A stretch of DNA of 48,670 nt from a virus (IMGVR_UViG_3300027784_000001:1-48670), one strand, 5' to 3'; numbered from the stretch's first letter, positions 2,278 through 48,670 are shown. Program-made: numbers and translations. The notes: generated by a model from the sequence alone, not told the origin.

Positions 2278-2466
2278 AACAGTGGGGGGCAAGTATCGTG
2301 CCAAGCAAAAATTTTTTATATTCCGCCTTCCAATTCTGCCATAATCCACCGCCCACTTTCAGACTATCCGCCCTTATGACAAGCCGCCCTACAGAGCGCA
2401 CCTCCTGGACCGTAGGAGCCGAAGATAATTTTTCCGCAAGGGGGGTGCACCCTTTCAGCCAAAACG

Positions 2467-2484
2467 CCGTCACAGCCCGTCACA
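2467..2484. repeat. Two CCGTCACA octamers 10 bp apart; outlying members of the GTGACGG heptamer family
   Basis: CCGTCACA at 2467-2474 and 2477-2484. Confidence 0.6.
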
Positions 2485-2527
2485 ACCGCCCCCCTTCAGA
2501 GCGGCAAAATTTCGGAAGGATAGGGCT

Positions 2528-2542
2528 GTTACAATTTGTAAC
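2528..2542. promoter_or_regulatory. Perfect 15-bp palindrome GTTACAA-T-TTGTAAC, built from the same TTGTAAC half-site that is reiterated at 46547-46945
   Basis: Read directly. The half-site recurs at least 8 times in the 46.5 kb hub. Confidence 0.5.
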
Positions 2543-3109
2543 GGCGGAAGGTCGGCGCTTAAAGGCTTGCTATACTAGGCGGATGGGACCCCAAGAAGGG
2601 GTCCCCCTGTTTAGAGGCCGGAGCTGCCTCCACGAGAGATTTACCCAGAATCGCAACACACACCTACCGCGGGGGCGTAGCGCGGGTACACGCGGGGGCG
2701 CACGCACGTAGGCAGGCCGAGATACTGCGGAGAGGACCCTGAGAGTAGCAGCAGGGCCTATCAGAGGCATTCAGCAGGCAGGGGGCATGCCAGCACACCC
2801 GCAGCAGGGAAGAACGGCACAGGCCGCCCTACAGACAAGCAACATTACACCTACTCCGCCATCGGACGCGCCCGCCCGCGCATAGAGCCGCCGCAGCTGG
2901 CACACTTACTCCGCCCTCTGACCCGGCGGTCCTGCCATAGCGCAGTGCCTCTAGGGAGGCGCAGAGCTTCAGAAGGTCAGCAGGCCCCTGTCACAGCGCC
3001 CGCCGGCCCGATAGCGTGGCGCCAAGCGCAGCGCAAGAGCAGGCCACGCCTAGAGCTTAGGGCAGCGCACGGAGAGGCCGCACGGAGGGGCAGCAGGCCC
3101 GCAGGCCCG

Positions 3110-3475
3110 CCCTGTGACGGCTGTGACGGAGTGTGACGGCAATGTGACGGCCCCCCTGTCACAGCGGCTCGCCCGCCTATAGCCCCGTTTAACGCATCCG
3201 TGCACGGGCAGTGTGACGCTGTGACGGCTCTGCCCTATTACTATATATATAAAACATGCTTTTTTCTTAAATTCTTTCCATTTTCAAAATTCTACCAATA
3301 TAAGAGAGGGGTGTCACAAACGTACAAAAAATTTCTAATCTGGCGCTATTACTGGATTTCCGCTGTGACACCCACCCCGTCACAGTGCCGTCACAGGCCG
3401 TCACAGCCGTCACAAATTGCAGATTCCCTAATGATCTCGGGCACTTAACCCCGTCACAGCCCCCGTCACGGCCAA
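3110..3475. repeat. Iteron module A: arrays of TGTGACGG / CCGTCACA at helical spacing flanking an AT-rich (TA)n core (3233-3310); homologous to module B at 25538-25895
   Basis: Forward octamers at 3113, 3122, 3132, 3143, 3212 and 3220. Inverted copies at 3157, 3312, 3377, 3388, 3398, 3407, 3451 and 3463. Long blocks are identical to module B, e.g. GGCGGCTCGCCCGCCTATAGCC, CCCTATTACTATATATAT, ATGCTTTTTTCTTAAATTCT and GGGGTGTCACAAA. Confidence 0.85.
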
Positions 3476-3726: not shown

Positions 3727-4566
3727 ATGCAATTCGACCCCGAGGCAGCAAAACAACAGATACGCGACCTCCATAAGAGGGGGCTCAGCGTCAAGCAAAT
3801 AGCAGAGAAGACGGAGCTACACCACACCGCGGTGAGTCGGGAGCTATACGGCCACGACCACTACCTCATCCAACGGCGGATGGTCAAGCTGCTCGACAAG
3901 GGCTATAGCCGCAGGGAGATAGCCAACAAGCTCAACGTCGAATATGAGTTCGTCCTGACAGTGCTCTCGCGGGCAGGCCGCTCTGGTAGCGAAGATCGGC
4001 GCATGCTCTCCCCCGGCGACCGAGAAGACGCGCTAAAAATGTACATGAACGGGGCCACCGCGCACGAAGTGGGAGAGAAGTACGACCTCGCCGCACAGAC
4101 CGTCTGGAACCTCGCCTCTAAACACGGCGCCCAGAAGTCTGGGAATGAGGACTGGGAGAAAGACGCCATCGCGTACCGCGTACTTGTCAAGCGCCAGCGC
4201 ATGACCACAGCGCTACAGGGGCTATCGATGGGCCGGAGCACGGCGGTCTGGTACCGCTTCAAGGACCCCATCACCAACCCGGAGTTCTACCGCAAGCATG
4301 GCATCACCTATGACGATATTAAACACCGCTATCGCTTCAAGGGCACCACGGCAGAGATTAGCCGCTATTGGAAGGTCTACGTGGATGTGAACGAGAACGG
4401 CATGTCCTATACGGACGCGCAAGAGAAGTACGCCATCACCCGCTACAAGGTGCGGGATTCGGCCCAGCTGGGCTCAGTCAACGCCTTCGTGGCCTGCTGG
4501 GAGCTCGCCCTCCGACGGGGCCAGCTGCCTATTGGCGATAATCATACGTCTGATGGAGGCCAGTAA
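3727..4566 (+). CDS. DNA-binding protein with 4-5 tandem helix-turn-helix modules (terS/resolvase-type HTH repeats), first gene of the packaging cluster
   Basis: Repeated segments: RGLSVKQIAEKTELHHTAVSREL, KGYSRREIANKLNVEYEFVLTVL, NGATAHEVGEKYDLAAQTVWNLA and GLSMGRSTAVWYRF. ATG at 3727 with an AGAGAGG box. The listed ORF start 3658 is a TTG with no RBS. Confidence 0.7.
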   Translation: MQFDPEAAKQQIRDLHKRGLSVKQIAEKTELHHTAVSRELYGHDHYLIQRRMVKLLDKGYSRREIANKLNVEYEFVLTVLSRAGRSGSEDRRMLSPGDREDALKMYMNGATAHEVGEKYDLAAQTVWNLASKHGAQKSGNEDWEKDAIAYRVLVKRQRMTTALQGLSMGRSTAVWYRFKDPITNPEFYRKHGITYDDIKHRYRFKGTTAEISRYWKVYVDVNENGMSYTDAQEKYAITRYKVRDSAQLGSVNAFVACWELALRRGQLPIGDNHTSDGGQ

Positions 4567-5075
4567 TGGGAGAATTTGGGCCATCTGACTGGGACAAGGC
4601 CATCGAGGTCGCCAAGTACCGTGCTTTCGGCTACACGCAGAGGGAGGTAGCAGCCAAGGTGGGCGTAAGTGCCCCGACTATCTCGCGCTGGGAGAATAGC
4701 AGCTGGTGGGGGCAGGCCATCGAGGAGGCGAAGACGGGCGAAATGCGGGAGCTCGCAGGCCGGGCGCTCAATACCGTCCGCGAGGCCATCGAAGAGGGCG
4801 ACGTGACCACCGCCCGCTGGTACCTAGAGCGTACAGAGCCGCGCCTCTCTAAGAGTGGGAGCGGGGGAGGCAGCAGCCACAATGTGCAGGTCAACGTCGG
4901 CGTGGCCGGCGGGGGCAATGCGACCACGGAGGTTATCGAAGACGCCAACGGCAACACCCGCCGTATCGAAGATATGTCCGAAGAGGAGCTACGGGAGCTC
5001 GCCGGCGAGGACACTAAGGGCGAGATTATCGACCTCCAATTCGAGGAAATGAAGGGGGAGCTCAATGCCGATTAG
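4566..5075 (+). CDS. terS: Small terminase subunit-like HTH protein
   Basis: N-terminal HTH (GYTQREVAAKVGVSAPTISRWE), 169 aa, GGAGG RBS. Lies directly upstream of terL and overlaps it. Confidence 0.6.
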   Translation: MGEFGPSDWDKAIEVAKYRAFGYTQREVAAKVGVSAPTISRWENSSWWGQAIEEAKTGEMRELAGRALNTVREAIEEGDVTTARWYLERTEPRLSKSGSGGGSSHNVQVNVGVAGGGNATTEVIEDANGNTRRIEDMSEEELRELAGEDTKGEIIDLQFEEMKGELNAD

Positions 5076-6600
5076 CTCTAGACAGCGCGCGCAGCAGGCC
5101 CGTGCAGAGAAGGCCCGCCGGCGCCTTGCCCGCGTCAACTTCCGCGACTTCACACACTATACCTTTGAATCCTTCAAGGAAAACTGGCACCACCGCCGCA
5201 TCATGGAGATACTCCACGGGGCAGCCAACTTTGACCCGGAGTACAGGAAGACCATTATCACCGCTCCGCCCCGGCACGGGAAGAGCGAGCTCGTAAGCGT
5301 TCGGCTCCCCGCGTACTTCCTCGGCAAGCGCCCAGAGCTAGAGGTCCTCCACGTGACCTACGGCGACGACCTCTCCGAAGATATGGGCACCAAAGTGGGC
5401 GACGTGCTGGAGACCCAGCGCTTCCGCGAGGTGTTCCCCAACTTCCGGCTGGAGGGCCGGAACACGAAGCAGAAAAAGCAGACCCACAAGGGCGGCTGGT
5501 ACCGGGCTATTGGGCTCAAGTCCGGGGGAATCACCGGGACGGGCGCTAACCTCCTGATTATTGACGACCCTATTACCAACCGTAAGGCGGCGGAGAGCCC
5601 CAAGACTCGTGAGCATATCTGGGAGGCGTTCCAAGACGACTTGCTCTCCCGCATGGAGTTCCCGTGGGCGATCGTTGTACTGGCTACCCGCTGGCACAAA
5701 GACGACCTCACCGGGCGGATACTCGACGCCGACGATAAGGATGAGTGGAACCATATCCATTTGCCTTGGATATGCGACTACCATGAGTACGATGAGGAGC
5801 ACCCGGATTACGACCCGCGAAGCCCCGGCGACCCGCTCTGGCCCGGCGTGAGCACCAAGCGCGACTACGCGGCAATGGAGGGCGTTAACGTCGACCCGCC
5901 CAGCCACGAAGAGCTCGTCCAAATGGAGCTGGAAAAGGCCGAGAAGATGCAGCAAGACCGGCCCTATAAGTACTACTCCCTGTACCAAGGGCGCCCCATT
6001 GGAAAGTCGGGCAACCTCATCGCAGAGGCGTGGCTCAAGCAGTACAACTCCACCCCGCAGAAATTCGGTGCTTACTGCCAGAATAAGATCATCTCTATCG
6101 ATGCAAACCAGAAGGCCAAGGCCAAGTCTCAGACCAGCTCTGACGCGGCCATCGTTGTCGGCGGCCGGAAGGCCGACGGGAGCCTTGCCCTCCTCGATGC
6201 GGACTGGGGTAACTGGTCGTTTATCCAACTCAAAAAGCGCGCCAAGGTCATGGCCGAGAAGTGGCCGGGCTGTGCGCTCTTGATTGAGAATAAGGCAAGC
6301 GGCGCTGCGCTTATCAACTCGCTGGAGGACGATTACAAAGTCATCCCCTACGAGCCCAAAGGCGTGGGCAAGGTCGACCGGGCACTGACGCTGGCGGACT
6401 GGGCGGAGGCCGGCAAGGTGCTGCTGCCCACAAGAAAAAACGCCCCTTGGGTAGAAGAGGCCCGGACCATCATCACCGAGTTCCCTTCGCACCCAAAGGA
6501 CGACGTGTTGGACGCGCTAGCCCAGCTCGCGAGCCACTACGATAGCCGGTCGCACGGGCTCCAAGAGCTGCGCCGCGTTACTGGCTATGCTGATCGGTAG
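5065..6600 (+). CDS. terL: Terminase large subunit
   Basis: Walker A-like PPRHGKSE, Walker B LLIIDDP, ATRWHKDDLTGR motif, C-terminal nuclease-like DDVLDA. 511 aa, positioned before the portal gene. Confidence 0.9.
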   Translation: MPISSRQRAQQARAEKARRRLARVNFRDFTHYTFESFKENWHHRRIMEILHGAANFDPEYRKTIITAPPRHGKSELVSVRLPAYFLGKRPELEVLHVTYGDDLSEDMGTKVGDVLETQRFREVFPNFRLEGRNTKQKKQTHKGGWYRAIGLKSGGITGTGANLLIIDDPITNRKAAESPKTREHIWEAFQDDLLSRMEFPWAIVVLATRWHKDDLTGRILDADDKDEWNHIHLPWICDYHEYDEEHPDYDPRSPGDPLWPGVSTKRDYAAMEGVNVDPPSHEELVQMELEKAEKMQQDRPYKYYSLYQGRPIGKSGNLIAEAWLKQYNSTPQKFGAYCQNKIISIDANQKAKAKSQTSSDAAIVVGGRKADGSLALLDADWGNWSFIQLKKRAKVMAEKWPGCALLIENKASGAALINSLEDDYKVIPYEPKGVGKVDRALTLADWAEAGKVLLPTRKNAPWVEEARTIITEFPSHPKDDVLDALAQLASHYDSRSHGLQELRRVTGYADR

Positions 6601-25215: not shown

Positions 25216-25563
25216 GTGGAACAGGCCATTATAACCATAGCCTCAAGCGCAGGAGGAGGGGCGGCCATCATCGGCCTAGTGCTCTACCTGCTGGTCAAGC
25301 GGATGAAGCACCGGGAAGACCATAAGCTAGAGCTAGAGCGCCTCCGCGCAGATAGCGAAGAGGGCCTCTACCACCGCCTTCGGGCCGACGTAGAGCGCTC
25401 CCATGATGCGCTGGGCAGGCAGCGCGAATATATCCAAGTGTTGGAGGCCCGCCTACGGCAGTGTTCCCTCTGCGATGATTGCCGCGAGCGCACCGACCTG
25501 CCCCCAGCGCAAGCGCCACCCGGCGAGGGCGTTGACGACTGTGACAGCTGTGACGGGGTGTGA
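25216..25563 (+). CDS. Membrane-anchored lysis protein (holin or i-spanin-like): N-terminal TM helix, coiled coil and a Cys-rich tail
   Basis: GTG start with an AAGGAG RBS. TM segment IITIASSAGGGAAIIGLVLYLLV. The last 7 codons (CDSCDGV) are encoded by the first iterons of module B. Confidence 0.6.
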   Translation: MEQAIITIASSAGGGAAIIGLVLYLLVKRMKHREDHKLELERLRADSEEGLYHRLRADVERSHDALGRQREYIQVLEARLRQCSLCDDCRERTDLPPAQAPPGEGVDDCDSCDGV

Positions 25564-25895
25564 CGGCAATGTGACGCGGGGGGTGTCACGGCGGCTCGCC
25601 CGCCTATAGCCTCGGCTAAGCGATCTGACCGGGCTAGATGTGACGGCGTGACGGGGTGGCCCTATTACTATATATATATAATATGCTTTTTTCTTAAATT
25701 CTGTACAGATTGAAATTCCTACTAACTTATAGAAGGGGTGTCACAAATGGGGGAACAAAGCCGAGATCCGAGGCTATAGCTGGCCGATACGGTGTGACGG
25801 CCCCCCTGTCACAAGGGTGTCACAAGGCCCGGTAGCCGTCACAAAACGCCGATTCCTCAACGATTCCAGGCACTTAGCCCCGTCACAAGCCCCCC
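25538..25895. repeat. Iteron module B: second copy of the GTGACGG/CCGTCAC + (TA)n core module (core 25660-25735)
   Basis: Forward copies at 25540, 25549, 25559, 25570 (spacing 9/10/11, as in A), 25639, 25648 and 25793. Inverted copies at 25584, 25739, 25807, 25818, 25836 and 25880. Confidence 0.85.
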
Positions 25896-26086: not shown

Positions 26087-26671
26087 ATGTGGCAAGTGTT
26101 GACCGCCCTATCGGAATTGAAAGTGGGGTCCCTGAACGTCGTCTGGGATGCGCAGGAAGAAGAAGTAACCCCCATCCGCGCCCGTAACGGCTCGCCCCGC
26201 GGGGTTGGCGCACGCTACACGGCGAGGTGGGTAGATACAGGCGAAGGCGAGTTTTATGGGCCTCCCCACTACACGCTGTCTTGGGCAGAGCGCATGGCCC
26301 GCTGCATCTTCGGCACCGAAGACTACGCCACGCCGGAAGACGCCCCCGCAGACTTCAGCTACGTGGTCCGCATCGAAGACGAGTACCGCCTCTCCATCGG
26401 CACTGTCATGGGCAGACGTAACACCGCGCTTCTCAACCGTTTGACCATCTCCGCTCTGAACACCAACCGCGACGGCATCCAAGCGGAGGGGCTGGACCTC
26501 AACTTGACACTGCGCTACGACCGTGGTAGCTACCGTTCTCTGGTGGCCACCTTCCTCGGCGCGCTGGAGCCGCTGCTGATGCGGCGCAACGTAGAGGGAT
26601 TCGCCCCCGCACCGCCGCCCTTCGGCATGGCGCGACGCAACATTGACAAGTACTTTTATCTTAAAGGCTAA
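26087..26671 (+). CDS. Hypothetical protein, first gene after the consensus promoter
   Basis: 194-aa ORF with an AAAGGAG RBS. Confidence 0.65.
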   Translation: MWQVLTALSELKVGSLNVVWDAQEEEVTPIRARNGSPRGVGARYTARWVDTGEGEFYGPPHYTLSWAERMARCIFGTEDYATPEDAPADFSYVVRIEDEYRLSIGTVMGRRNTALLNRLTISALNTNRDGIQAEGLDLNLTLRYDRGSYRSLVATFLGALEPLLMRRNVEGFAPAPPPFGMARRNIDKYFYLKG

Positions 26672-26673
26672 AA

Positions 26674-26850
26674 ATGGAATACGCATTCTACGCATATATC
26701 GCTACTTCGCTGTCCATCTTCATCTGCTGCATCGACAATATGGATGACCTGCCCATCGCCTTTATCATGCTCCTGTTCTGGCCCGTGATAATCAATGCCA
26801 TGGCCCTCGCTACCGCGGCCAACTCGCTCCTCCCCGATAGCTGGGAATAA
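26674..26850 (+). CDS. Small membrane protein (58 aa, two predicted TM helices); below the ORF-track cutoff
   Basis: Hand translation gives MEYAFYAYIATSLSIFICCIDNMDDLPIAFIMLLFWPVIINAMALATAANSLLPDSWE. It fills the gap between two genes. Confidence 0.5.
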   Translation: MEYAFYAYIATSLSIFICCIDNMDDLPIAFIMLLFWPVIINAMALATAANSLLPDSWE

Positions 26851-26883
26851 TCTCCTCCCCTCTGCCTAAGTAAAAGGATAGTA

Positions 26884-27900
26884 ATGATTAGTAGACGGAA
26901 AGATAGTTACGAAGGTTCGCACGCCCAACACCTTACCAGTATCGGCCCGCTTGAGTGGTACTTGCCGGAGGATTTAGTGGAGGATATTTCCGGCCCCACT
27001 TCCGACCTCTTCATGGTCCTCGACGATTGCGGCCAGTTCTACTTGACTGGGGGCTACGGCCTCACGCGCTTTGCTGAGGGAGATTATACCGCCCCCGCTG
27101 CTGCCCGGTTCCCCCGCATGCCGTATGGCTGCCTGCCGCCCATCCAAGACAGCGTGTTTGAAGTGCTGCGTAAGTTCTTCAGCTCCCTCGCCTCTGCCAG
27201 CGCCTCCCGCACCCGCCCCCGTGTACGCTTTAGGCGGGACGCGTACACCTTCCGCGTGGACCTCGACGTGGAAGGGGCGACCCCGGATGTCCGCATCTTC
27301 AATGTCCTCCCGGCTATGGTGCCGGACCACATTCCTGTGGGCATCACTATCTCCTCCTCCGACAAGTGCCCGAGCTTTGAGCTCGACTTAGATTACTCCT
27401 ATGGCGGCAAGCCTCCCGAGCTCCCGGCCACGGAGCTGGGCTCCAGACCCCGTAAGCTCGTCGCTGCCGAGTACATACTATCGGAGTTTCTCCGTGCTCT
27501 ATCCCTGCTTGGCATGCCCGCGGCCTACCTCGAAGGCTGGCGCTCCAACTTGTCCCACTTCGCCACTTGGGCAACGCGCCGCTACGCCTCTACTGCAAGC
27601 TTATATATGGACCCGCTCCGGAGCGGCTTATTCCTCTCCGCCGACGATTCCCCCGCCGATACCTGCTGGCACCCGCTTGGCGGCGATGGCGAGCTCCCCG
27701 ATTCCCCTTACTATCTGGTCTGGCACCATGAGGCCGGAAAAGGGCTTACCCTCCCTTCCATGCGCACGGGTGCGGACCTCAAAGCTATGGTAGCTGGCGA
27801 GCCCACCGAGCGGGGCCACGTCATTCCGTATAGTGTTGGGTATGCGTTCCCGCTCTTCCCCTGTGTGCAGTACCTCGTGACCCCGCAGTCCAATCAGTAA
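26884..27900 (+). CDS. Hypothetical protein (338 aa)
   Basis: Long ORF with an AAAGGA box upstream. No recognisable motifs. Confidence 0.65.
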   Translation: MISRRKDSYEGSHAQHLTSIGPLEWYLPEDLVEDISGPTSDLFMVLDDCGQFYLTGGYGLTRFAEGDYTAPAAARFPRMPYGCLPPIQDSVFEVLRKFFSSLASASASRTRPRVRFRRDAYTFRVDLDVEGATPDVRIFNVLPAMVPDHIPVGITISSSDKCPSFELDLDYSYGGKPPELPATELGSRPRKLVAAEYILSEFLRALSLLGMPAAYLEGWRSNLSHFATWATRRYASTASLYMDPLRSGLFLSADDSPADTCWHPLGGDGELPDSPYYLVWHHEAGKGLTLPSMRTGADLKAMVAGEPTERGHVIPYSVGYAFPLFPCVQYLVTPQSNQ

Positions 27901-27926: not shown

Positions 27927-30314
27927 ATGAATGTTACTCTATTTAATCGGCTAAACGTTCCGGGCTGGTCCGGCCAAGGCCGCTGCACGACCCCCCGTGC
28001 TCCTGTCATGACACTCGAAGAGGCACTGGCCAAGCAGAGCCGCGGCGCGCTCCTCATCTGCGGGTATGCCCCGCTAGACGAAGACAAGGCCCAGTGCCCC
28101 CGCCTCCTTAAGTCCTCTATCGCCCGCTTTGGGGCCTCGCGCTATGCCTACACTGCGGTGCTTGTTGATATTGATTACGAAGACCACGAAGTCCCCCCGG
28201 ACAACTGGCACAAAGGGGTGCTGGGCAAGGTCGCCAGTACCGACTTGCCGGCGCCGGCGTGGTACCGCACGCCCCACGGCATGCGGCTGGTATGGCAGCT
28301 CGAAGCTGCTATCCCCCTCAAGTTCGCCGATAGCGCCAATGCTATGGTCCACCGTAAGCTCAATGCTGCGGGCATCGCTACGGATACGGGCACCACGGAC
28401 TGGACGCGGATGTTTTACGGCCCGTTCGCCCGCGGCAGGGACCTGCCCCACGGCAGGCTTGACGACGTGCCGGAGCTGGCCATCGACCCTGCAAACCACG
28501 AGGAGGCCAAGCCCAAGTCCCTCGGCGAGACCACGGCCCGCGACCGGCCTGCCGACCTCTCTGAGACGGTCAAAAGGGCGGAGTTGCAGCCGGTCAAGAG
28601 CGTGAACAAACAGCTGGCCGACGACCTCTACCGGGGCGCGCTGGGAGCGCCTGTGGGCAAGCGGCATGCCACACTGCTTAAGGTGGCTCTAGAGCTCTCC
28701 TTTATCTACGAGAGCGCGGACCCACTAAAGCCCTACCGCCTCCTGTACAACTCTTGCGTCCAGATGGGCAAAGACCCCGCGGAGCTCTGGCGGATATGCG
28801 AATGGTCGGCAGCTGCCTTTGCTGGCCACCTAGAGGAGACTGAGGAGGACCGTAAGAGGGCCATGAAACAGGCCCGAGAGGCGTTGGACTGCGACGGCGA
28901 AGAGATTGAGCAGCAGCTCGTGCTAATGCAGAGCCCCGAATACTACGTCTGGGATTCCACGGAGCGGACTTACTCGCACGCATACACCGACAAGGCCCAG
29001 ATACTAGCGGCCCTCAAGCGCCACTGCCCGATGCTGGCCATGGACCCCATCTGGGAGGCCATGCAGAACCGGATTATCCTCCGAGACTACTCCAGCCCGC
29101 TCCGTCGGGTTATCTACTCCTACAACGCGGACTCTGCCCACTATGATAAGGACTACCAAGAGCTCCTTATGCCCACGGCCAAGCAAGACCCGGAGCTCAT
29201 CCCTACCTACCACGAAGACGTAGCGGGCTGGCTATCTGCGCTCTTCGGGCCGCACGAGCAGCGGGGCCTCAACTGGCTTGCGGCTTATCCCCGCCTAGAC
29301 CGTCCGGTCTGTGCCTTGTATGTCAACGGGCCCAACTCCATCGGAAAGGGGCTCTTGGCCGTTGGCCTAGCCCGGCTCCACTCTCGCCATGGGGAGTTCA
29401 CAAAGTACGGCGAGATCGTCAACCAGTTCCAGTCTAGCTTCGCCCACTGCCCGCTGGTTGTGGCCGACGAGAAGGTCCCTACTGACGCCTTCACTAAGAA
29501 CGACTCTTCGCTCTTCCGCCAGTTGGTAGGTAACGGCACGCACTCTGTCAACGAAAAGAACCGCTCCGAGTATACTGTACTCGGGTACCCACGGGTACTC
29601 ATCACTGCGAATAACGAGGATGCGCTTGCCATCCGCGAGGACCTCAACTCGGAAGACCTAGAGGCGATTAAACGCCGTGTTGGTTATATCGATAGAGGAG
29701 CGGATAACGCCGCCGAAGAGTACCTTGTTGAGATGACTGCCGACCGCGGATTTGAGAATACCCACGACTTGACAGAGAGTTGGGCGGATGGTAGAATCGC
29801 GGAGCACGTCCTGTGGCTCGAAGAGAACCACGAGTACAAGGCCGACCAAAGGTTTTTAGTGGAAGGCTGGAGCTCGGACTTTACGGAGAGCTTAGTCACT
29901 AATGTCGGCAGAGCCGGCGAGATAGCTGAGACGGTTATTATGGCAGTCGCACAAGACTACAATTGCCCCGGTATCCGGTGGTTTGATGGCAAGCTGTTCG
30001 TTAATGCCAACGGCCTGATTAGTAACTGGAGCAATATCCGTAATAACGACTTCGATAAGCCGCCCAGCCCGCATAGCCGCACCAAGGCCCTGCGCTCGCT
30101 GGCGAACAACTCCAAGAAGCGGCTCCGGCGGCAGGGCTCGATGAAACGCTACTGGGAGATTGACGCGACGGTGCTGGCCCGCCTCGCTGATAGCCAGAAC
30201 ATCATGGACCCCGATAGCCTGATAGCGGCCACGTCCCGAAGCAAGGACAAAGATAAAGAGCACAGCAACGGCGGTAACGCCGGTACTTCTAACAAGATAG
30301 TGGAGATGGGATGA
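27927..30314 (+). CDS. Bifunctional primase-polymerase / D5-like (SF3) helicase
   Basis: N-terminal prim-pol-like VLVDIDYEDHE and TPHGMRLVW. Central P-loop NGPNSIGKG and Walker B LVVADEK. 795 aa. Confidence 0.65.
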   Translation: MNVTLFNRLNVPGWSGQGRCTTPRAPVMTLEEALAKQSRGALLICGYAPLDEDKAQCPRLLKSSIARFGASRYAYTAVLVDIDYEDHEVPPDNWHKGVLGKVASTDLPAPAWYRTPHGMRLVWQLEAAIPLKFADSANAMVHRKLNAAGIATDTGTTDWTRMFYGPFARGRDLPHGRLDDVPELAIDPANHEEAKPKSLGETTARDRPADLSETVKRAELQPVKSVNKQLADDLYRGALGAPVGKRHATLLKVALELSFIYESADPLKPYRLLYNSCVQMGKDPAELWRICEWSAAAFAGHLEETEEDRKRAMKQAREALDCDGEEIEQQLVLMQSPEYYVWDSTERTYSHAYTDKAQILAALKRHCPMLAMDPIWEAMQNRIILRDYSSPLRRVIYSYNADSAHYDKDYQELLMPTAKQDPELIPTYHEDVAGWLSALFGPHEQRGLNWLAAYPRLDRPVCALYVNGPNSIGKGLLAVGLARLHSRHGEFTKYGEIVNQFQSSFAHCPLVVADEKVPTDAFTKNDSSLFRQLVGNGTHSVNEKNRSEYTVLGYPRVLITANNEDALAIREDLNSEDLEAIKRRVGYIDRGADNAAEEYLVEMTADRGFENTHDLTESWADGRIAEHVLWLEENHEYKADQRFLVEGWSSDFTESLVTNVGRAGEIAETVIMAVAQDYNCPGIRWFDGKLFVNANGLISNWSNIRNNDFDKPPSPHSRTKALRSLANNSKKRLRRQGSMKRYWEIDATVLARLADSQNIMDPDSLIAATSRSKDKDKEHSNGGNAGTSNKIVEMG

Positions 30315-31579
30315 GTGATAGTAAAGAAGAGTTCGACCCGAAAGAATTGTGGATTTCTTCCACGGCGATTAGCCGCCGGATAGACTGCGACCGTAAATTC
30401 CGGTATGACCTTGACCACGGCATCAATATCGGCAGCGACCACTCCCGATGGGGGAACCTGTACCACGATGCTATGCAGGCTTACGTGCACTTCGATATGG
30501 ATAGCATGGAGGGCTTAGAGGCCGCCATGGCCGAGGTCCCTACGGGGGACTACGGCGAGAATGAGCTCCCCCACGAGGCATTCTATGAGGACGCCCTGCT
30601 GGGCGACGACGAAGAGCCCGGCACCCGGCTTATGTGGCCCGACGTGAAGCGCCGAGTAGAGGACACCATCGGCTCGGAGCACTTCCAGACAATCATCCGC
30701 GAGTATTCGCCTGTGGCAGAGAAGAACGTCTACGACTGGAAGGTCCCTCTGGGCGACCACGGCACCGTCGGCCACGGCCATATTGACCTCTTCCATACGC
30801 GCGAAGACGGCACGCCTGTTGTGTCTGACTACAAGACCCGCGGCTCGCTGGGCTACGCCCCCCGCACCGCGGAGGATTTCAAGAAGTTCCCCCAGACCGC
30901 CTACTATGCCTCGCTTGTCTACGCGCATGCCAAGGCCACCGGGGAGTGGGAACCCGCTAAGGGCGTAGTCGTCGCGCATATCAACGTGGTGCGCGATTCC
31001 ACGGGCTACCCGCCGACCATCTATAGCCACCACTATAGCCCGGCCTACTTGGAGTCGTGCCTCAACTACTTCAACATGTTCGTGAATGATGCCATCGAAG
31101 ATGCCCGCAAGGCGCCCGAAGACGTGGAGCCAAACCGGGCTTCGTGCTACAAGTATGGGAAGCCGTGCCCGTACTATGATAACTGCCCCGCCTATAATCC
31201 CCACGGCTACACGGGGCTTAAGTTCCTCATCTGGCATAATCAGCAGAATGCAGATAAAATTAAATTCGAGAAAGGTGAAGAGATGAATCCAAATAGCCCG
31301 CAGTGCGGCGATAGAGTCCTCCCTACTCCCATCCCCGAAAAAGAGATTGACGTGCTCGATGGCGTCACTCCCCGGCCCAAAAGCAAGCTCCACGGAGTCG
31401 AGGTCTATACCCTCGCGCAGCTTGTGGCCTATATTATGGAGCACGGAGGCCTAGACCACCTCAGCTACGTGGGCAAGGTGACTGAGGGTAAGATTGCCGC
31501 TTCGCTGGCTGAGTACTGGGTTTCGTTTGAGGACGCCACTGCGGAAGAAATGGAGGTGCTAAATGAGCTCGCCACCTGA
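30311..31579 (+). CDS. PD-(D/E)XK nuclease of the Cas4/RecB type with Fe-S cluster cysteines, plus a C-terminal extension
   Basis: N-terminal Cys (RIDCDRKF), catalytic HIDLF...VVSDYKT, and C-terminal CYKYGKPCPYYDNC. Confidence 0.7.
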   Translation: MSDSKEEFDPKELWISSTAISRRIDCDRKFRYDLDHGINIGSDHSRWGNLYHDAMQAYVHFDMDSMEGLEAAMAEVPTGDYGENELPHEAFYEDALLGDDEEPGTRLMWPDVKRRVEDTIGSEHFQTIIREYSPVAEKNVYDWKVPLGDHGTVGHGHIDLFHTREDGTPVVSDYKTRGSLGYAPRTAEDFKKFPQTAYYASLVYAHAKATGEWEPAKGVVVAHINVVRDSTGYPPTIYSHHYSPAYLESCLNYFNMFVNDAIEDARKAPEDVEPNRASCYKYGKPCPYYDNCPAYNPHGYTGLKFLIWHNQQNADKIKFEKGEEMNPNSPQCGDRVLPTPIPEKEIDVLDGVTPRPKSKLHGVEVYTLAQLVAYIMEHGGLDHLSYVGKVTEGKIAASLAEYWVSFEDATAEEMEVLNELAT

Positions 31580-32423
31580 GATTGACCTGACGAAGGACTA
31601 CGAGCCGCTAGAGGCTGCCGAGTGCGACCGCCTTGTGGTTGCATACCAGCAGGGCGATAAGGAGGCGGGGCGGCGTGTTGTGCTCTCCATCATCCCCTTC
31701 CTACTGGGCAGCTCGCCGCAGGCGGGTGCCGGCGGGGGGACCTACTTCAAGGGCCACGAAGACTGGATACCGTTCGGCGTTATCCAAGCGTATAAGGCGA
31801 TGGATACCTACAAGCCCGAGGGGGGCCGTACCTTCCTGAGCTGGCTCCGGTACTACATTTCCGGCTACCGCAGGTATAAGCGCTACGACCGCTACGGAAT
31901 GCGGTTTAGCAGCTCTGCCAGAGTCCGCAAGGTACTGAGCCGATGGCACGAGCTCAAAGACTACAGCACCGAGGAGCTCTGCGACTGGTTAATCGAAGAC
32001 GGGATGGACCCTAAGATAGCCCGCACTTGCGCCATATCTCTCCACCCGCGCCGCCCGTCTCCGATGGATGATGAGGCGTTCCGCGGCGTGCCTTGCGGAG
32101 GCAGCCCGGCGCAGGCTCTATGGGCCCGCGACGTGGCCATGGAGGTGGCGTCTCCCCCTGCCCAACAAGCCAGCGTAGATAGCGCTCGCGATGAGCTCAT
32201 GGCAATCATTGGCCCCGCCCTAAAGGAGCTCACCGAGGAGAACCGCGTCATCTTTGAGCTGCACTATCTCCACGAGGTGCCGGCAGTTAAGATAGCCGAT
32301 GACCGCGGCCTGAGCCGGCAAGCTATCTCTCTACGCTACCGGAAAGTGTGCAGGCATATAGCCGACCACGTAGCCGAAGAGTACGGTGAGGATGCAAGGG
32401 AGCGTGTACTTGAGGTTATTTGA
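31563..32423 (+). CDS. Phage-encoded sigma-70 family sigma factor (group 3/4-like)
   Basis: Region 2-like FGVIQAYKAMDTYKPEGGRTFLSWLRYYISGY. Region 4 HTH LTEENRVIFELHYLHEVPAVKIADDRGLSRQAISLRYRK. Confidence 0.7.
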   Translation: MSSPPEIDLTKDYEPLEAAECDRLVVAYQQGDKEAGRRVVLSIIPFLLGSSPQAGAGGGTYFKGHEDWIPFGVIQAYKAMDTYKPEGGRTFLSWLRYYISGYRRYKRYDRYGMRFSSSARVRKVLSRWHELKDYSTEELCDWLIEDGMDPKIARTCAISLHPRRPSPMDDEAFRGVPCGGSPAQALWARDVAMEVASPPAQQASVDSARDELMAIIGPALKELTEENRVIFELHYLHEVPAVKIADDRGLSRQAISLRYRKVCRHIADHVAEEYGEDARERVLEVI

Positions 32424-39267: not shown

Positions 39268-40795
39268 TATATTCTTTGAACACCTTCCCGAGTACGCCCC
39301 GCTAGAGTGGTCCTCTACAAGGGCGCTTGTCACAGATTTGGCCGAGAGTTACGAGCAAAACGCAGATTCCATGTATGCGGCCATCCGCCGACGCATGGGG
39401 CGCACGCCGACGCTCCAAGAGCTGCAAGAGGCCATTGAGGACGGACAGCCCGAGGCCCTGTCTAACGATGGCGATGGGCCGGATGCCGCACCGCCGACGA
39501 ACAGTAACCTCCGGCAGGTAGATATCCGGCACCACTATAACAAGGCCGACGACGTGTATGTCTTCTGGCTGCCCTATAGCAAGGGCAGGGGCATGGCTGT
39601 ACCGGGCGAAGATGTCCGTGAGGCCAAGCGCCGGTATAGCAGGTGGGAAGAGTCCGGCCCAGAGGAGACGATAAACAACGTCTGCGAAGCCTTCGGCTGG
39701 CCGCGCGAGTGGTTTATGCAGATGAAGCAAGAGCTTGGTTGGACCCACGACCAAGACCCCTTTACAGCGGAAGAGCATAAGGCCCATATCCGAGGGGAGC
39801 AAGACCTGCTGAAAGACCTCAGCATGATGAATCGCTCATGGCTAGAGCGGCAGGCCAAGGTCAAGCGCTGGCGCCGGACAGAGCGCGACGCGGAGAAGTG
39901 GCGGGCGTGGAAAGCCGGGAAGCTCGACCACCTCCAAGAGTTCTTTGAGCAGCACAGTACGGGGCTCCCCGAATCCGTGCCGAAGGTCGATAGGGACTTC
40001 AGCCAAGATGAGGGCCTAGTGGTCATCCACCCGGCAGATATACACCTAGGCAAGCGGCCCTTCCTCGGCCCTGACGCGGGGCTCGACCACTACATGCAGG
40101 CGATTATGGGCTCAATGGAGCGGCTATGCGAGCGTTCCGTGGATAGCCACGAAGCCGTGTTAGTGCTGGGCAATGACTTGTTCCACGTAGACGGGATGGA
40201 CGAGTCCACTACGCGGGGCACTGCGCAAAGCCTTGGGTGCGAGGTCCACGAGATGGTAGGCGCTGCCTATAGCCTGTCGGCCCGGCTTATCAACATGGCT
40301 CGCCGGTACTTCTCTGCGGTGACTGTTGTGGTGGTGCGCTCTAACCATGACGACGCGCTGAGTTGCGGCCTCTACCACCACCTAGACGTGGTGACGCAGA
40401 GCATCGAGGGCGTCGAGCTCCACACAGAGCAAGGCCCCGCGTATCGCCAGTACCTTACTTACGGCCACAATCTCATGGCCTTCGGCCACGGCCACGGCAT
40501 TAAAGCCGGAGAGTGGGTAGACCTCATCATGGCAGAGGCCCGCGAGCTCGTGAGCGATACAGTGTTCACTTACGTCTTTACAGCGCACTTCCACTACGCC
40601 GCCGATAAGAGCATTTCGGAGAGCGACGGTGAGGGGGCGGTGCACGTATTCCAAGCGCCCTCCCCTACGAAAGTCGACCGCTGGCATGACCTCAACGGAT
40701 TTGTCCTTGCAAGGCGGATGCTGGCGTGCTATACTTTCAGTCCCGAGGAGGGCCATCTTTCTCGGCATTTCGCCCCAATTGAGTTGAACCTTTGA
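39248..40795 (+). CDS. Metallophosphoesterase (Mre11/SbcD-like or related) with a ~250-aa N-terminal extension of unknown function
   Basis: Motifs HPADIHLG (DxH), LGNDLFH (GD/GNDxxH), VRSNHDD (GNHD-like), FGHGHG (GHxH). Confidence 0.65.
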   Translation: MTMTLYDIFFEHLPEYAPLEWSSTRALVTDLAESYEQNADSMYAAIRRRMGRTPTLQELQEAIEDGQPEALSNDGDGPDAAPPTNSNLRQVDIRHHYNKADDVYVFWLPYSKGRGMAVPGEDVREAKRRYSRWEESGPEETINNVCEAFGWPREWFMQMKQELGWTHDQDPFTAEEHKAHIRGEQDLLKDLSMMNRSWLERQAKVKRWRRTERDAEKWRAWKAGKLDHLQEFFEQHSTGLPESVPKVDRDFSQDEGLVVIHPADIHLGKRPFLGPDAGLDHYMQAIMGSMERLCERSVDSHEAVLVLGNDLFHVDGMDESTTRGTAQSLGCEVHEMVGAAYSLSARLINMARRYFSAVTVVVVRSNHDDALSCGLYHHLDVVTQSIEGVELHTEQGPAYRQYLTYGHNLMAFGHGHGIKAGEWVDLIMAEARELVSDTVFTYVFTAHFHYAADKSISESDGEGAVHVFQAPSPTKVDRWHDLNGFVLARRMLACYTFSPEEGHLSRHFAPIELNL

Positions 40796-46214: not shown

Positions 46215-46546
46215 TACGCCCCGGCGCCGAGGCAGTTGCCAAAGTGTCCGGGGCTTTTCTGCGCCTGCTTTCTGCGGGCGCTCCGGAGCTCGCCGGGAAA
46301 CACCTCGGAGCTTCGCCGGGAAGAGGGCGGAGTAAGTCTGTAGGAAAGGCAGAGGGGCCGCCGGAGTTACTCGCGGAGCTGCTGAGAAAAGGTCCGCGCT
46401 GCCTCCCAAAATAGTCCGGGACTTGCTGTAGAAATACCCCGGAGCTCTCCGAGGCCCCTAGTGGAAAAGGGCAGAGGGTACTTATAAAATTTTTGAAAAA
46501 TCGCCAGAATAATGTGTATAGGGGTTCATAACCTCCAGCCACCCCG

Positions 46547-46720
46547 TTTGTAACTTTTTGTAACTTTTTGTTAAAAATCGTTAAAAATCGTTAAAAATCG
46601 TTAAAAATCGTTAAATTTTGTTAAATTTTGTAACGGAATGTAAAGCTGGTGATTATGTAACTTTTGGTTAATTTTTGTAACTTTTAGTAAAATATTGTAA
46701 AGCTTTGTTAAGTTGGATTT
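46547..46720. repeat. AT-rich array of 10-bp-phased repeats: 2x TTGTAACTTT, 4x GTTAAAAATC, 2x GTTAAATTTT, then looser TGTAAC/TGTAAA/GTTAA units
   Basis: Strict 10-bp register from 46548 to 46640, visible as identical 10-nt columns in the sequence listing. It degenerates toward 46720. Confidence 0.9.
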
Positions 46721-46740
46721 GTACGAAACTTTACATTCGT

Positions 46741-46756
46741 TGGCACGAACCTTGCA
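46741..46756 (+). promoter_or_regulatory. Sigma54-type -24/-12 element S1: TGGCACGaaccTTGCA
   Basis: Exact fit to TGGCACG-N4-TTGCW. Confidence 0.7.
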
Positions 46757-46794
46757 TGCGCGGACTCGCCCGCGTTACATTTCTTTTCACGCGC

Positions 46795-46810
46795 TGGCAC
46801 GGTTCTTGCT
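46795..46810 (+). promoter_or_regulatory. Sigma54-type -24/-12 element S2: TGGCACGgttcTTGCT
   Basis: Exact fit to TGGCACG-N4-TTGCW. Confidence 0.7.
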
Positions 46811-46850
46811 TTCAAAAATTCCGGCCTTCGCAACACAACTTTACATTCGT

Positions 46851-46866
46851 TGGCACGGATGTTGCA
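46851..46866 (+). promoter_or_regulatory. Sigma54-type -24/-12 element S3: TGGCACGgatgTTGCA
   Basis: Exact fit to TGGCACG-N4-TTGCW. Confidence 0.7.
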
Positions 46867-46905
46867 TGGCCGCCCGCCGGGGAAGTTACATTTCTTTTCA
46901 TTCGT

Positions 46906-46921
46906 TGGCACGGGCCTTGCA
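46906..46921 (+). promoter_or_regulatory. Sigma54-type -24/-12 element S4: TGGCACGggccTTGCA
   Basis: Exact fit to TGGCACG-N4-TTGCW. Confidence 0.7.
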
Positions 46922-46993
46922 TGGCTGGACGGGGCCGACTTGTAACATTTTGTACGTCTATGTAAAAGAATGTTGCGAAATTAATTTCTGGGC

Positions 46994-47009
46994 TGGCACG
47001 AACCTTGCA
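46994..47009 (+). promoter_or_regulatory. Sigma54-type -24/-12 element S5: TGGCACGaaccTTGCA
   Basis: Exact fit to TGGCACG-N4-TTGCW. Confidence 0.7.
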
Positions 47010-47060
47010 ATCCTTTATAGGGGGGGCTGAGCACGGCGATATACTTTCTGACTATGGCGC

Positions 47061-47089
47061 TTGACACCTCCTGCCCTATCCCTTACTTT
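47061..47089 (+). promoter_or_regulatory. Early sigma70-type promoter P1: TTGACA-N17-TACTTT
   Basis: Consensus -35 and 17-nt spacer. The conserved leader GGGGTGCGGCAGACGAGAAC(AC)n...AGAAAAGGA follows. Confidence 0.65.
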
Positions 47090-47136
47090 CGGGGTGCGGC
47101 AGACGAGAACACACTGACCAGAGAAAAGGATTACCA

Positions 47137-47574
47137 ATGCTCCGCATCCATCGTACATACCAACTCAACGGAACGCTCGGCGTTGTCTACAGCGTCGACG
47201 GCCAGCGCTGCTCTACAGCGCTCCCTAAAGGCGTGGAAGGGCGCGAAGCCATCGCCGCCTATCTTGGCGCCGACCTTGACCTTGAACCTGCTAGCGCTCC
47301 CGTGGAGGCGCCGCTTGCGATTGCGAGCGCCGGGTTGGCGCTGGCAGCGTTGGGTGCTCCGTTGGCGTTCGTCGCCACGCTGGCCACGCTGGCGTTGGCT
47401 ATTTGGCTGTCGACTAGTGACGCCACTGGTCCGGCCGGTCGCATTAGCGATGCCACCACGGCCATCCTGCCACCTAGTGGCGACGAGTTGGACTATGCCG
47501 CGTGGCGCGAGGGGATTCAGTCCGCGGAAAGCGCAAGGTGGACGCTGGCCAGAATTTCCGAGAAAAGCGCTTGA
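47137..47574 (+). CDS. Early protein with a central Ala/Leu-rich membrane-spanning region
   Basis: 145 aa with an AAAAGGA RBS. Hydrophobic stretch APLAIASAGLALAALGAPLAFVATLATLALAIWL. Its stop codon TGA lies inside the -35 of P2. Confidence 0.65.
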   Translation: MLRIHRTYQLNGTLGVVYSVDGQRCSTALPKGVEGREAIAAYLGADLDLEPASAPVEAPLAIASAGLALAALGAPLAFVATLATLALAIWLSTSDATGPAGRISDATTAILPPSGDELDYAAWREGIQSAESARWTLARISEKSA

Positions 47575-47599
47575 CACCTGCTCCTGCATCCCTTATTTT
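47571..47599 (+). promoter_or_regulatory. Early sigma70-type promoter P2: TTGACA-N17-TATTTT
   Basis: An ~82-nt promoter block (47555-47636) matches P3 (47917-47993) apart from one extra AC repeat in P2; their leaders diverge at the RBS. Confidence 0.65.
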
Positions 47600-47651
47600 C
47601 GGGGTGCGGCAGACGAGAACACACACACACAGACCAGAAAAGGAATGGCCC

Positions 47652-47915
47652 ATGGATACACCGCGACGAGCACGCAAGACCACCGTTCAGCGCCTTGTAA
47701 GGGGGTTGGAGGCAACCTTAGAGTTTGACCCTCAGACCCTCTATATCTACTCCCCCCGTGGCACGGTATTTAGCGCCACCGGAACGTCCACCATCGCCAT
47801 TGGATTTGCTGATGCTTTTGGTTCGTGGCGTCCAGTTGCTTATGGTGAAGCTGTGGACCTTCTAGACCACGGTGTCGAGTCCGCCCCCGCCGACTACCGC
47901 GGCTGGTGGGAATAA
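47652..47915 (+). CDS. Early hypothetical protein (87 aa)
   Basis: ATG 47652 preceded by GAAAAGGAA. The upstream part of listed ORF 47502..47915 covers the promoter and leader and is rejected. Confidence 0.6.
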   Translation: MDTPRRARKTTVQRLVRGLEATLEFDPQTLYIYSPRGTVFSATGTSTIAIGFADAFGSWRPVAYGEAVDLLDHGVESAPADYRGWWE

Positions 47916-47932
47916 GTTTCCGAGAAAAGCGC

Positions 47933-47961
47933 TTGACACCTGCTCCTGCATCCCTTATTTT
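47933..47961 (+). promoter_or_regulatory. Early sigma70-type promoter P3: TTGACA-N17-TATTTT
   Basis: Same promoter block as P2 (differs only by one fewer AC repeat); the leader diverges at the RBS. Confidence 0.65.
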
Positions 47962-48013
47962 CGGGGTGCGGCAGACGAGAACACACACACTGACCAGAGA
48001 AAAGGATAGCACA

Positions 48014-48214
48014 ATGAACGCCCCACTGTTTGACACCTCGACGGTAATTCTTATCAAAGCGGGGAAGGCTGCGATTCGGGCAGGACATACGCTGGATGAT
48101 TTCCTCGACGGCTACTTGCGCCATAGCGCTGAGCCCGAGCTTGACGCACGCCGCGTCAAGGGGGCGCGATTTGAGTTGGGCGTTTTTGAGCGCTGTGCAA
48201 ATAATCTCAAATAA
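48014..48214 (+). CDS. Early hypothetical protein (66 aa)
   Basis: ATG 48014 preceded by GAGAAAAGGA. Confidence 0.6.
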   Translation: MNAPLFDTSTVILIKAGKAAIRAGHTLDDFLDGYLRHSAEPELDARRVKGARFELGVFERCANNLK

Positions 48215-48218
48215 GCGC

Positions 48219-48247
48219 TTGACAAGGGGCTCGCACCCCGCTATTGT
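48219..48247 (+). promoter_or_regulatory. Early sigma70-type promoter P4: TTGACA-N17-TATTGT
   Basis: Shares AAGCGCTTGACA with P1-P3 but has a different spacer (containing a GGGG/CCCC inverted repeat) and a different leader. Confidence 0.55.
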
Positions 48248-48309: not shown

Positions 48310-48670
48310 ATGGAATACACCACCGAGAAATCGATTCTCCACCACTCTCGCGACGGCTACAGCGCGCTAGAAGCCACCCTCTTCAACGCTCAACTTTCCA
48401 CGGTCCAGAGGAGCCAGCGCATTGGCGACCGGATTGGCCGGTTCTCAGCACTCCACGGCGCCGGTAGCAGGCTTCGTGCTGGACGCTATGCCGCCGGGCT
48501 GGCGCGCAAAGCGGGTGATGCTTGCCTCGCTAATGCAGCGCGCAAAGCGGCACTTGCCACCTGCGACGCGCTGCAAGTAGCGCTTGGGTTGACTGATATC
48601 AGCGGCATCGATGGCGCCACGACTTGCTACGGCGAATTGGCGCCGGGCGACGTGTTGCAACGCACGGATG
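48310..48670 (+). CDS. 5' part of the early hypothetical protein gene that continues across the junction to base 326
   Basis: ATG 48310 preceded by GAAAAGGAA. The frame is open to the window end, which is why it is absent from the ORF track (no stop in the window). Confidence 0.7.
   Translation, partial: MEYTTEKSILHHSRDGYSALEATLFNAQLSTVQRSQRIGDRIGRFSALHGAGSRLRAGRYAAGLARKAGDACLANAARKAALATCDALQVALGLTDISGIDGATTCYGELAPGDVLQRTD
48572..48670. repeat. Terminal direct repeat, the partner of bases 1-99
   Basis: 99/99 identity. Confidence 0.95.

Follow-up and report, generated by a model that had tools for sequence, protein, structure and literature searches.

Why would a phage genome carry the same array of short repeats twice, once in front of its packaging genes and once in front of its replication genes? 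The question is raised by IMGVR_UViG_3300027784_000001:1-48670, a viral sequence from soda-lake sediment metagenomes; the whole stretch of 48,670 nucleotides is called the window here, and positions are counted from its first letter. The two copies, module A (3113-3471) and module B (25540-25889), are sets of iterons placed symmetrically about an AT-rich core. Judging from their layout, their conservation as a pair and the joint change of their iteron between relatives, we think it likely that both modules serve as assembly sites of origin type for a self-loading protein that joins an AEP primase to a superfamily 3 (SF3) helicase, with B as the operon-proximal origin and A as a second site.

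Two mirror-image modules on one circle

The window is circular: bases 1-99 recur at 48572-48670, and the unit is therefore 48,571 bp. The distance from A to B is 22,427-22,429 bp, or 46% of the circle, in agreement with a first-pass annotation of the sequence that had placed the copies about 22 kb apart and nearly opposite each other. The same annotation held that module B repeats module A block by block; every element that it listed was found where it had placed it, and the pairwise alignment that it proposed returned 79.7% identity across 359 aligned columns (MAFFT mean column identity, 81%), making B a true second copy of A. The iterons, TGTGAC(G/A), number about 13 to 15 per module, at intervals of roughly one helical turn. 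Module A has 15 occurrences of the core GTGAC/GTCAC and module B 13, the exact TGTGAC is present 14 and 11 times, and the site-to-site distances follow a common series in both copies: 9, 10, 11, 14, 55, 8, 92, 52-54, 14, 11, then 10 + 9 in A or 19 in B, and 44. In both modules the two outer five-site clusters are mirror images of each other (left ++++-, right +----), and the inner sites point toward the AT core. Adding to the earlier description, we found that each module is a large inverted repeat with arms of 55-57 nt that are 74-84% complementary (84% for 3113-3167/3360-3414 in A and 74% for 25559-25615/25768-25824 in B). The symmetry centre lies within the ~75-bp core, where GC falls to 20% against a genome average of about 58%. 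The parts of both modules, and two outlying elements, are as follows.

25540-25889, no strand assigned: module B, the whole candidate origin-type element, with 13 GTGAC-core sites (11 exact TGTGAC) flanking the AT core
25540-25592, + strand: left outer cluster of B, four forward TGTGAC(G/A) at 25540/25549/25559/25570 (spacing 9/10/11) and a reverse site 14 bp on
25590-25611, no strand assigned: GC block of B, GGCGGCTCGCCCGCCTATAGCC, with the left GCCTATAGCC box; mirror box GGCTATAGC at 25772-25780; the block reads aGCGGCTCGCCCGCCTATAGCC in A (3164-3184)
25639-25654, + strand: inner forward pair of B, 8 bp apart (TGTGACGGCGTGACGG)
25660-25734, no strand assigned: AT-rich core of B with a (TA)n tract, 20% GC in 25670-25729, a putative DNA-unwinding element; CCCTATTACTATATATAT...ATGCTTTTTTCTTAAATTCT spans 25660-25702 in B and 3233-3275 in A
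25735-25747, - strand: inner reverse site of B, GGGGTGTCACAAA; A counterpart at 3308-3320
25793-25846, - strand: right outer cluster of B, mirror of the left, one forward and three reverse sites
25869-25889, - strand: distal block of B, GGCACTTAGCCCCGTCACAAG; the shared form GGCACTTA(G/A)CCCCGTCACA lies at 25869-25888 in B and 3440-3458 in A
3113-3471, no strand assigned: module A, the paralogous copy, with 15 GTGAC-core sites; left cluster 3113-3165, inner pair 3212-3227, AT core 3233-3307, GGGGTGTCACAAA 3308-3320, right cluster 3364-3416, distal sites 3440-3471
2468-2484, - strand: a pair of satellite CGTCACA sites spaced 10 bp apart ahead of module A
2985-3015: partial copy of the TGTCACAGCG..CCCGCC..ATAGC block, upstream of module A

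The heptamer TGTGACG occurs 20 times in the window against 3.6 expected, a count that none of 100 shuffles reached; the array is therefore not a product of chance. For TGTGAC, 29 occurrences were observed against 11.6 expected, and all but one of them (28/29) fall within two non-coding regions, 2469-3458 or 25540-25887. The remaining ~47 kb holds a single TGTGAC, at 39329, where about 11 would be expected. This distribution suggests that stray TGTGAC sites are avoided, as they would be under selection against stray initiator sites. No further module copies beyond A and B were found in the window, and Rfam and tRNA scans of it were empty, so the modules are not known RNA genes.

Conservation of the pair in relatives

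A search of 5.8 billion clustered proteins with the 795-aa primase-helicase encoded 3' of module B returned nine homologues, one identical and the others 36-51% identical. A B-type module lies directly 5' of the primase-helicase gene and its sigma70 promoter in L120, L121, L126 and L123/L124, with a common layout of forward sites, AT core, reverse sites and TATAGC-like boxes; in the more distant L137 a small open reading frame (ORF) stands between a similar module and the gene. In relatives the last iteron is 10-23 bp from the -35 element of the promoter. The A-type module occurs 5' of a gene with several helix-turn-helix motifs (multi-HTH) and the large terminase gene (TerL) in L131, L133 and L134, and in part in L128; the portal proteins of these relatives are 45-54% identical. 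One contig of 47,837 bp, to which L131 and L121 both belong, carries both modules, ~27 kb apart, with the gene order of the window. In what is taken as another relative, replication contig L125 and packaging contig L128 come from a single sample and open with the same 57 bp of module edge, which is where an assembly interrupted by a repeated module would stop.

The iteron differs between these phages and does so in both copies at once. The window shares TGTGAC with L120, L126 and L134; the two copies of the 47.8-kb relative have TGTTAC (13 times in A' and 10 times in B'), L125/L128 TGTCC(G), L123 TGTGAGC and L137 TGTGAT/TGTGCA. The two copies within a genome are 79.7% and 76.9% identical, and copies from different genomes 64-74%. 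Taken together, the paired presence, the co-variation of the iteron and the likeness within genomes mean that both copies have been kept since before these lineages split, and on this comparison of sequences both copies track a single, changing DNA-binding specificity.

The first-pass annotation had looked to relatives to separate a working pair from a recent non-functional duplication. The pair was not refuted by this comparison: none of the relatives proved to be without a module, and changes in the iteron affect the two copies alike. An element of ~350 bp with long inverted arms, present twice at 80% identity, might still have been a recent functionless duplication of A or an insertion resembling a miniature inverted-repeat transposable element, but both positions are occupied in relatives at only 45-51% protein identity, the iterons of the two copies have changed in step, TGTGAC is avoided elsewhere in the genome and the window has no further copies. 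We rejected this explanation, as the pair is syntenic and conserved in relatives, and give it next to no weight.

The copies are also directly repeated, with the whole structural and lysis block between them. They might thus resolve the circle into a structural and a replication circle, or serve a plasmid-prophage as centromere-like sites; parC-type centromeres resemble them in being arrays of short repeats around a core. Against this, no recombinase, ParA or ParB was found in Pfam/PHROG scans of the module-adjacent genes and the large replication-block ORFs, the contig assembles as one circle, and 80% identity with short exact runs is a poor substrate for homologous exchange. Recombination or partition is therefore a very improbable role for the modules.

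No nucleotide match to the window was found among 50,697 GenBank phages, and its TerL is at most 32% identical to that of any cultured phage. Single-protein IMG/VR searches with TerL and with the primase-helicase gave no match, and the host was left unassigned because no relative of the primase-helicase was present in GTDB genomes. Two further observations concern the relatives. Both arms carry a further conserved box, GCCTATAGCC / GGCTATAGC, placed between their outer and inner groups of iterons (window 3176-3184, 25602-25611 and 25772-25780). The box has counterparts in the modules of L120, L126, L131 and L134, and its binder could be a host factor. In L125 (7284-9875) the SF2 helicase homologue has 863 aa compared with 532 aa in the window, and a weak LAGLIDADG match suggests an intein or homing-endonuclease insertion.

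Flanking genes and the candidate reader of the iterons

All long ORFs of the window are on the + strand, and each module heads a gene block, as the first-pass annotation had proposed. Module A, which sits inside a ~1.4-kb gene-free stretch according to gene calls of the same phage from another sample, heads the packaging and structure block: a multi-HTH gene, an HTH gene resembling a small terminase (TerS-like), TerL and the portal gene follow. Module B is preceded by an M15 peptidase gene and a 115-aa ORF and heads the replication block, which begins with a sigma70 promoter, three genes of unknown function (26087-27900), the 795-aa DUF5906 protein and a PD-(D/E)XK nuclease; further on come a weak sigma-like protein, an SF2 helicase and a family-A polymerase (PolA). 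The features that matter here are these.

3727-4566, + strand: 279-aa protein with three tandem HTH motifs, first gene after A, a rival candidate for binding the sites
4566-6600, + strand: TerS-like HTH protein (4566-5075) and large terminase (5065-6600)
25216-25563, + strand: 115-aa ORF after the M15 peptidase gene, C-terminus ...DDCDSCDGV*, weak homologue in L126
26003-26030, + strand: sigma70-type promoter of the replication operon; TTGACA, 16-nt spacer, TATAAT and TG extension, 12/12 consensus positions
27927-30314, + strand: 795-aa primase-helicase 2 kb 3' of module B; AEP-like N-terminus, DUF5906, winged-helix-like region ~694-746; proposed iteron binder

The promoter, already described as near-consensus, matches at every consensus position, and equivalent promoters lie 3' of the module in L120, L121, L123, L126 and L125. 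The earlier statement that the first iterons of B also carry protein code was borne out as well: the 24 bases at 25540-25563 are the last codons (CDSCDGV) and stop of the 115-aa ORF, whose product the first-pass annotation called a lysis protein. An N-terminal hydrophobic stretch and the position after an M15 peptidase gene would suit that putative role, but Pfam/PHROG-type scans gave no family match.

Some details of these blocks were noted in passing. The gene-free stretch before the packaging genes (2340-3112 in the window) contains, in addition to the two CGTCACA sites and the partial block at 2985-3015, a palindrome, TGTTACAATTTGTAACG (2527-2543); a sigma54-like match lies on the minus strand just upstream of the stretch (2289-2303). 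Relatives have an equally long gene-free stretch there with other repeat families (L133 1-1000; L134 895-1760). The sigma-like protein, 286 aa at 31563-32423, weakly matches regions 4 and 2 of sigma70 and could be a phage sigma factor for the late genes, which have no sigma70 promoter after module A.

Modules that head both large co-directional gene blocks could be transcription-control regions, through which a phage regulator (the 279-aa triple-HTH protein or the sigma-like protein) switches both operons jointly; the first-pass annotation had offered such co-regulation as its alternative. The perfect sigma70 promoter after B fits, as does its short distance from the last iteron in relatives. 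So does the multi-HTH gene found after every A-type module seen, with fast divergence as might be expected of a specificity-switching regulator (20-25% identity between the window and L134, L131, L133 and L128). However, no sigma70-like promoter was found on the + strand after module A, and the copies therefore cannot regulate alike. Symmetric arrays of 13-15 sites spread over ~350 bp about a core of 20% GC go far beyond the needs of an operator and are shaped like an unwinding element. The same iteron, TGTGAC, is used by the window and L134 even though the two multi-HTH proteins are only 25% identical, with HTH motifs that are not conserved, and in unrelated phages such arrays track helicase genes. 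With a sigma70 promoter after B only, we consider joint control unlikely as the main role, whereas autoregulation of the B promoter is plausible and, given the 10-23 bp between the last iteron and the -35 element in relatives, probable.

The other candidate reader is the 795-aa protein. It matches DUF5906, the D5-type SF3 ATPase family, in Pfam, with no Pfam match to Toprim. Its AlphaFold2 (AF2) model (pLDDT 71) gave Foldseek matches to the African swine fever virus (ASFV) PrimPol C962R, the C-terminal region of NrS-1, monkeypox virus (MPXV) E5/vaccinia D5, and PriRep1/PriRep5 of Staphylococcus aureus pathogenicity islands (SaPIs), and the N-terminal domain matches AEP/PrimPol folds (ASFV C962R, S-2L PrimPol). 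On the strength of these fold matches, the protein is assigned as an AEP-primase/D5-type SF3 helicase. Residues 634-795, modelled separately (pLDDT 76), have a helix-helix-hairpin topology whose matches, weak at Foldseek E 0.03-2, are mostly winged-helix DNA binders (TcpK, Cdt1 WH, PadR, MarR, RTP). The primase-helicases are 48-51% identical, and their putative winged-helix region combines a conserved helix, SR(L/T)KALRSL, with variable basic wing residues (KKRLR...MKRYW vs QRTLR...QRRYW). Pfam scans of the large replication-block ORFs revealed no other initiator-type protein, there was no Pfam match to an initiator of the iteron-plasmid Rep_3/RepA type (Rep_3), and no DnaA boxes (<=1 mismatch) occur within 2.5 kb of either module. 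Provided that the modules are origins, we favour the primase-helicase as the reader of the iterons, with rather better than even confidence, because the HTH proteins have diverged despite the shared TGTGAC, the primase-helicases are conserved and arrays in other IMG/VR viruses lie beside helicase genes.

TGTGACG arrays were found at 119 loci in a scan of IMG/VR, and in at least 57 cases sites of both orientations lie within 450 bp. Many of the arrays are directly 3' of primase-helicase genes of the D5_N/DUF5906 or AAA_25 families, with TerL as the next gene, and the flanking ORFs also include helicase domains of VapE and DnaB type. Loci L011, L016, L027, L052, L054, L062, L075, L086 and L108, on unrelated contigs of 35-67% GC, have bidirectional TGTGAC arrays directly 3' of primase-helicase genes; that the same hexamer stands beside differing helicase families is partly because the search selected for TGTGACG. 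In L020 and L042, whose modules are most like those of the window, Pfam gave no annotation for the flanking genes. Runs of CGTCACAAA in apparent coding sequence (L007 6300-6390, L096 9630-9665) recall origins inside initiator genes. A link between the arrays and TerL was tried and dropped: five TGTGACG-array loci have distant TerL homologues, and elsewhere TerL is merely the module adjoining the helicase gene.

The position of A directly upstream of the HTH, TerS-like and TerL genes, and of several IMG/VR arrays just 5' of TerL, would suit packaging sites (pac or cosB-like) bound by small terminase or HTH proteins, with B as a second packaging entry; in the pac site of P1, too, hexamer repeats flank a central region where cleavage occurs. 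Yet B is kept beside the primase-helicase gene, far from the terminase genes, in at least six relatives, and the IMG/VR arrays abut the 3' end of the helicase gene, TerL being merely the next module. Two cos/pac sites 22 kb apart would also lead to sub-genomic packaging from a cos system, and the identity of the iteron follows the conserved primase-helicase better than the fast-evolving HTH proteins. Packaging sites are thus a decidedly improbable explanation. None of the rivals explains both the B-type module beside the helicase gene in all relatives and the unwinding-element anatomy; an origin function is the best-supported reading.

Several observations weigh against origins served by the primase-helicase. 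A hidden Markov model of the IMG/VR primase-helicases next to TGTGAC arrays did not match the window protein, and the C-terminal regions of the window protein and of the array-adjacent IMG/VR helicases have no significant similarity (hhalign E 0.09), so the shared iteron is not explained by detectable homology of binding domains. The winged-helix assignment is based on weak Foldseek E-values, from 0.03 to about 2, and the origin-binding domain of P4 alpha was not among the Foldseek matches of the C-terminal model. The putative recognition helix is nearly invariant across relatives with differing iterons; specificity would therefore have to reside in the wing or elsewhere. The multi-HTH DNA-binding protein, encoded right after every A-type module seen, could be the binder instead. 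In SaPIs and the IMG/VR loci the origin is 3' of the helicase gene, whereas here it is 5', with the three genes at 26087-27900 between. L126 with L134, or L125 with L128, are treated as one phage only from shared samples and complementary gene content. Finally, the real origin could be a third AT region rich in repeats, 46537-46720. Five exact matches to sigma54-type promoters, and repeated units of sigma70 promoters, follow that region, which looks like an early-transcription control region.

The surroundings of this third region are unusual in their own right. Within 46537-47050, an AT-rich array of 10-bp phased repeats (TTTGTAAC, TCGTTAAAAA) precedes the five exact sigma54 -24/-12 matches (TGGCAC-N5-TTGC), which are on the + strand at 46741, 46795, 46851, 46906 and 46994 in 55-bp tandem units. 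Tandem promoters of the sigma54 type are uncommon in phages. From 47045 to 48224 there are three to four repeated sigma70-like promoter units (GCGCTTGACA...TTATTT) with a ~90-nt conserved leader, each ahead of a small early ORF.

Proposed function and likeness to known systems

In the origin model that we prefer, the primase-helicase would read the iterons through its putative C-terminal winged-helix domain, accumulate on both arms of a module, melt the AT core and load itself as two opposed hexamers; the mirrored arrays would position the two oligomers facing the core. Its primase domain would then prime and the family-A polymerase of the phage extend. Module B would be the origin next to the replication operon, and its promoter-proximal iterons would probably also allow feedback of the initiator on the sigma70 promoter. 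Module A would be a second site for the same protein, either a second origin that fires or an initiator-bound partner comparable to SPP1 oriR or P4 crr; as a partner, it could stimulate the origin by looping or stall forks and so bring about concatemer synthesis near the packaging start. The earlier idea of two separated iteron elements served by the primase-helicase is favoured by the paired conservation, the iteron co-variation and a protein of D5/SaPI-Rep type.

It is conceivable, though doubtful, that the duplicated origin also couples replication to packaging, with A being loaded upstream of a terminase operon that lacks a sigma70 promoter. As a second origin or fork barrier, A might launch sigma-mode synthesis and open the late operon where packaging starts. 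If so, the specificity of the initiator would set replication, late expression and packaging together, which would explain the concerted evolution of the copies and the purging of stray iterons, and control of the concatemer switch or of late expression by module A would amount to a compact link between replication and packaging.

It is very rare for the origin of an uncultured phage to be located; the assignment proposed here, made from sequence alone, has unusual support in layout, synteny, iteron co-variation and avoidance of stray sites. The natural series TGTGAC, TGTTAC, TGTCCG, TGTGAGC and TGTGAT could be used to learn how winged-helix domains of the D5/Rep type read DNA, and the conserved pairing of equal modules at the replication and packaging operons would extend the idea behind SPP1 oriL/oriR and P4 ori/crr to a clade with AEP-primase/SF3 proteins.

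The layout of a single module is close to that of SaPI origins, in which iterons of 5-6 nt lie on both sides of an AT-rich region in opposite orientation, are read by a C-terminal winged helix and lead to the loading of two hexamers (PMC9371898). As there, many short iterons (5-8 bp) stand opposed on both sides of an AT core, with 15 sites in A and 13 in B, and the SaPI initiator is an SF3 helicase fused to or paired with a primase; the fold search of the 795-aa protein places it next to PriRep1/PriRep5, D5 and NrS-1. The SaPI origin lies immediately 3' of rep, once per element, and has 6-12 iterons, and the IMG/VR arrays 3' of helicase genes follow this SaPI arrangement (PMC9371898). In the window, by contrast, the module is 2 kb 5' of the primase-helicase gene (directly 5' in L120, L121, L123 and L126), and there are 13-15 sites in a strict mirror layout, an extra GCCTATAGCC box and two modules per genome.

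The pairing itself recalls Bacillus phage SPP1, where gp38 binds two origins of like organisation, oriL among the replication genes and oriR in the late region (PMC6316719). Bound at oriR, gp38 was proposed to stall forks and trigger concatemer synthesis (PMC6316719). Both phages have two distant regions of repeats with an AT-rich unwinding element (a putative one in the window), one on the replication side and one on the late side. Unlike the candidate initiator here, gp38 binds the origin as a protein of its own and relies on a loader and a DnaB-type helicase; oriL, moreover, is inside gene 38, and SPP1 has direct in place of mirror-image repeats. In the replication block of the window, Pfam scans detected no DnaB-type helicase or loader, only the D5-type primase-helicase and the SF2 helicase.

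The first-pass annotation had turned to the satellite phage P4, in which ori and crr reportedly share an octamer iteron read by the C-terminal domain of alpha. P4 crr consists of two 120-bp direct repeats, is needed in cis, is unlike ori and lies 4.5 kb away from it, and the iteron is TGTTCACC. The window resembles P4 in having two separated cis elements with a common iteron and a multifunctional protein with primase and SF3 helicase. It does not belong to the P4 type: its primase is AEP-like, whereas alpha is of Toprim type, its iteron is TGTGACG, and A and B are copies of equal architecture 22 kb apart, unlike the differing ori and crr. By analogy, the SaPI origin for layout and SPP1 oriL/oriR for pairing appear to be closer counterparts of modules A and B, and P4 ori/crr a looser one.

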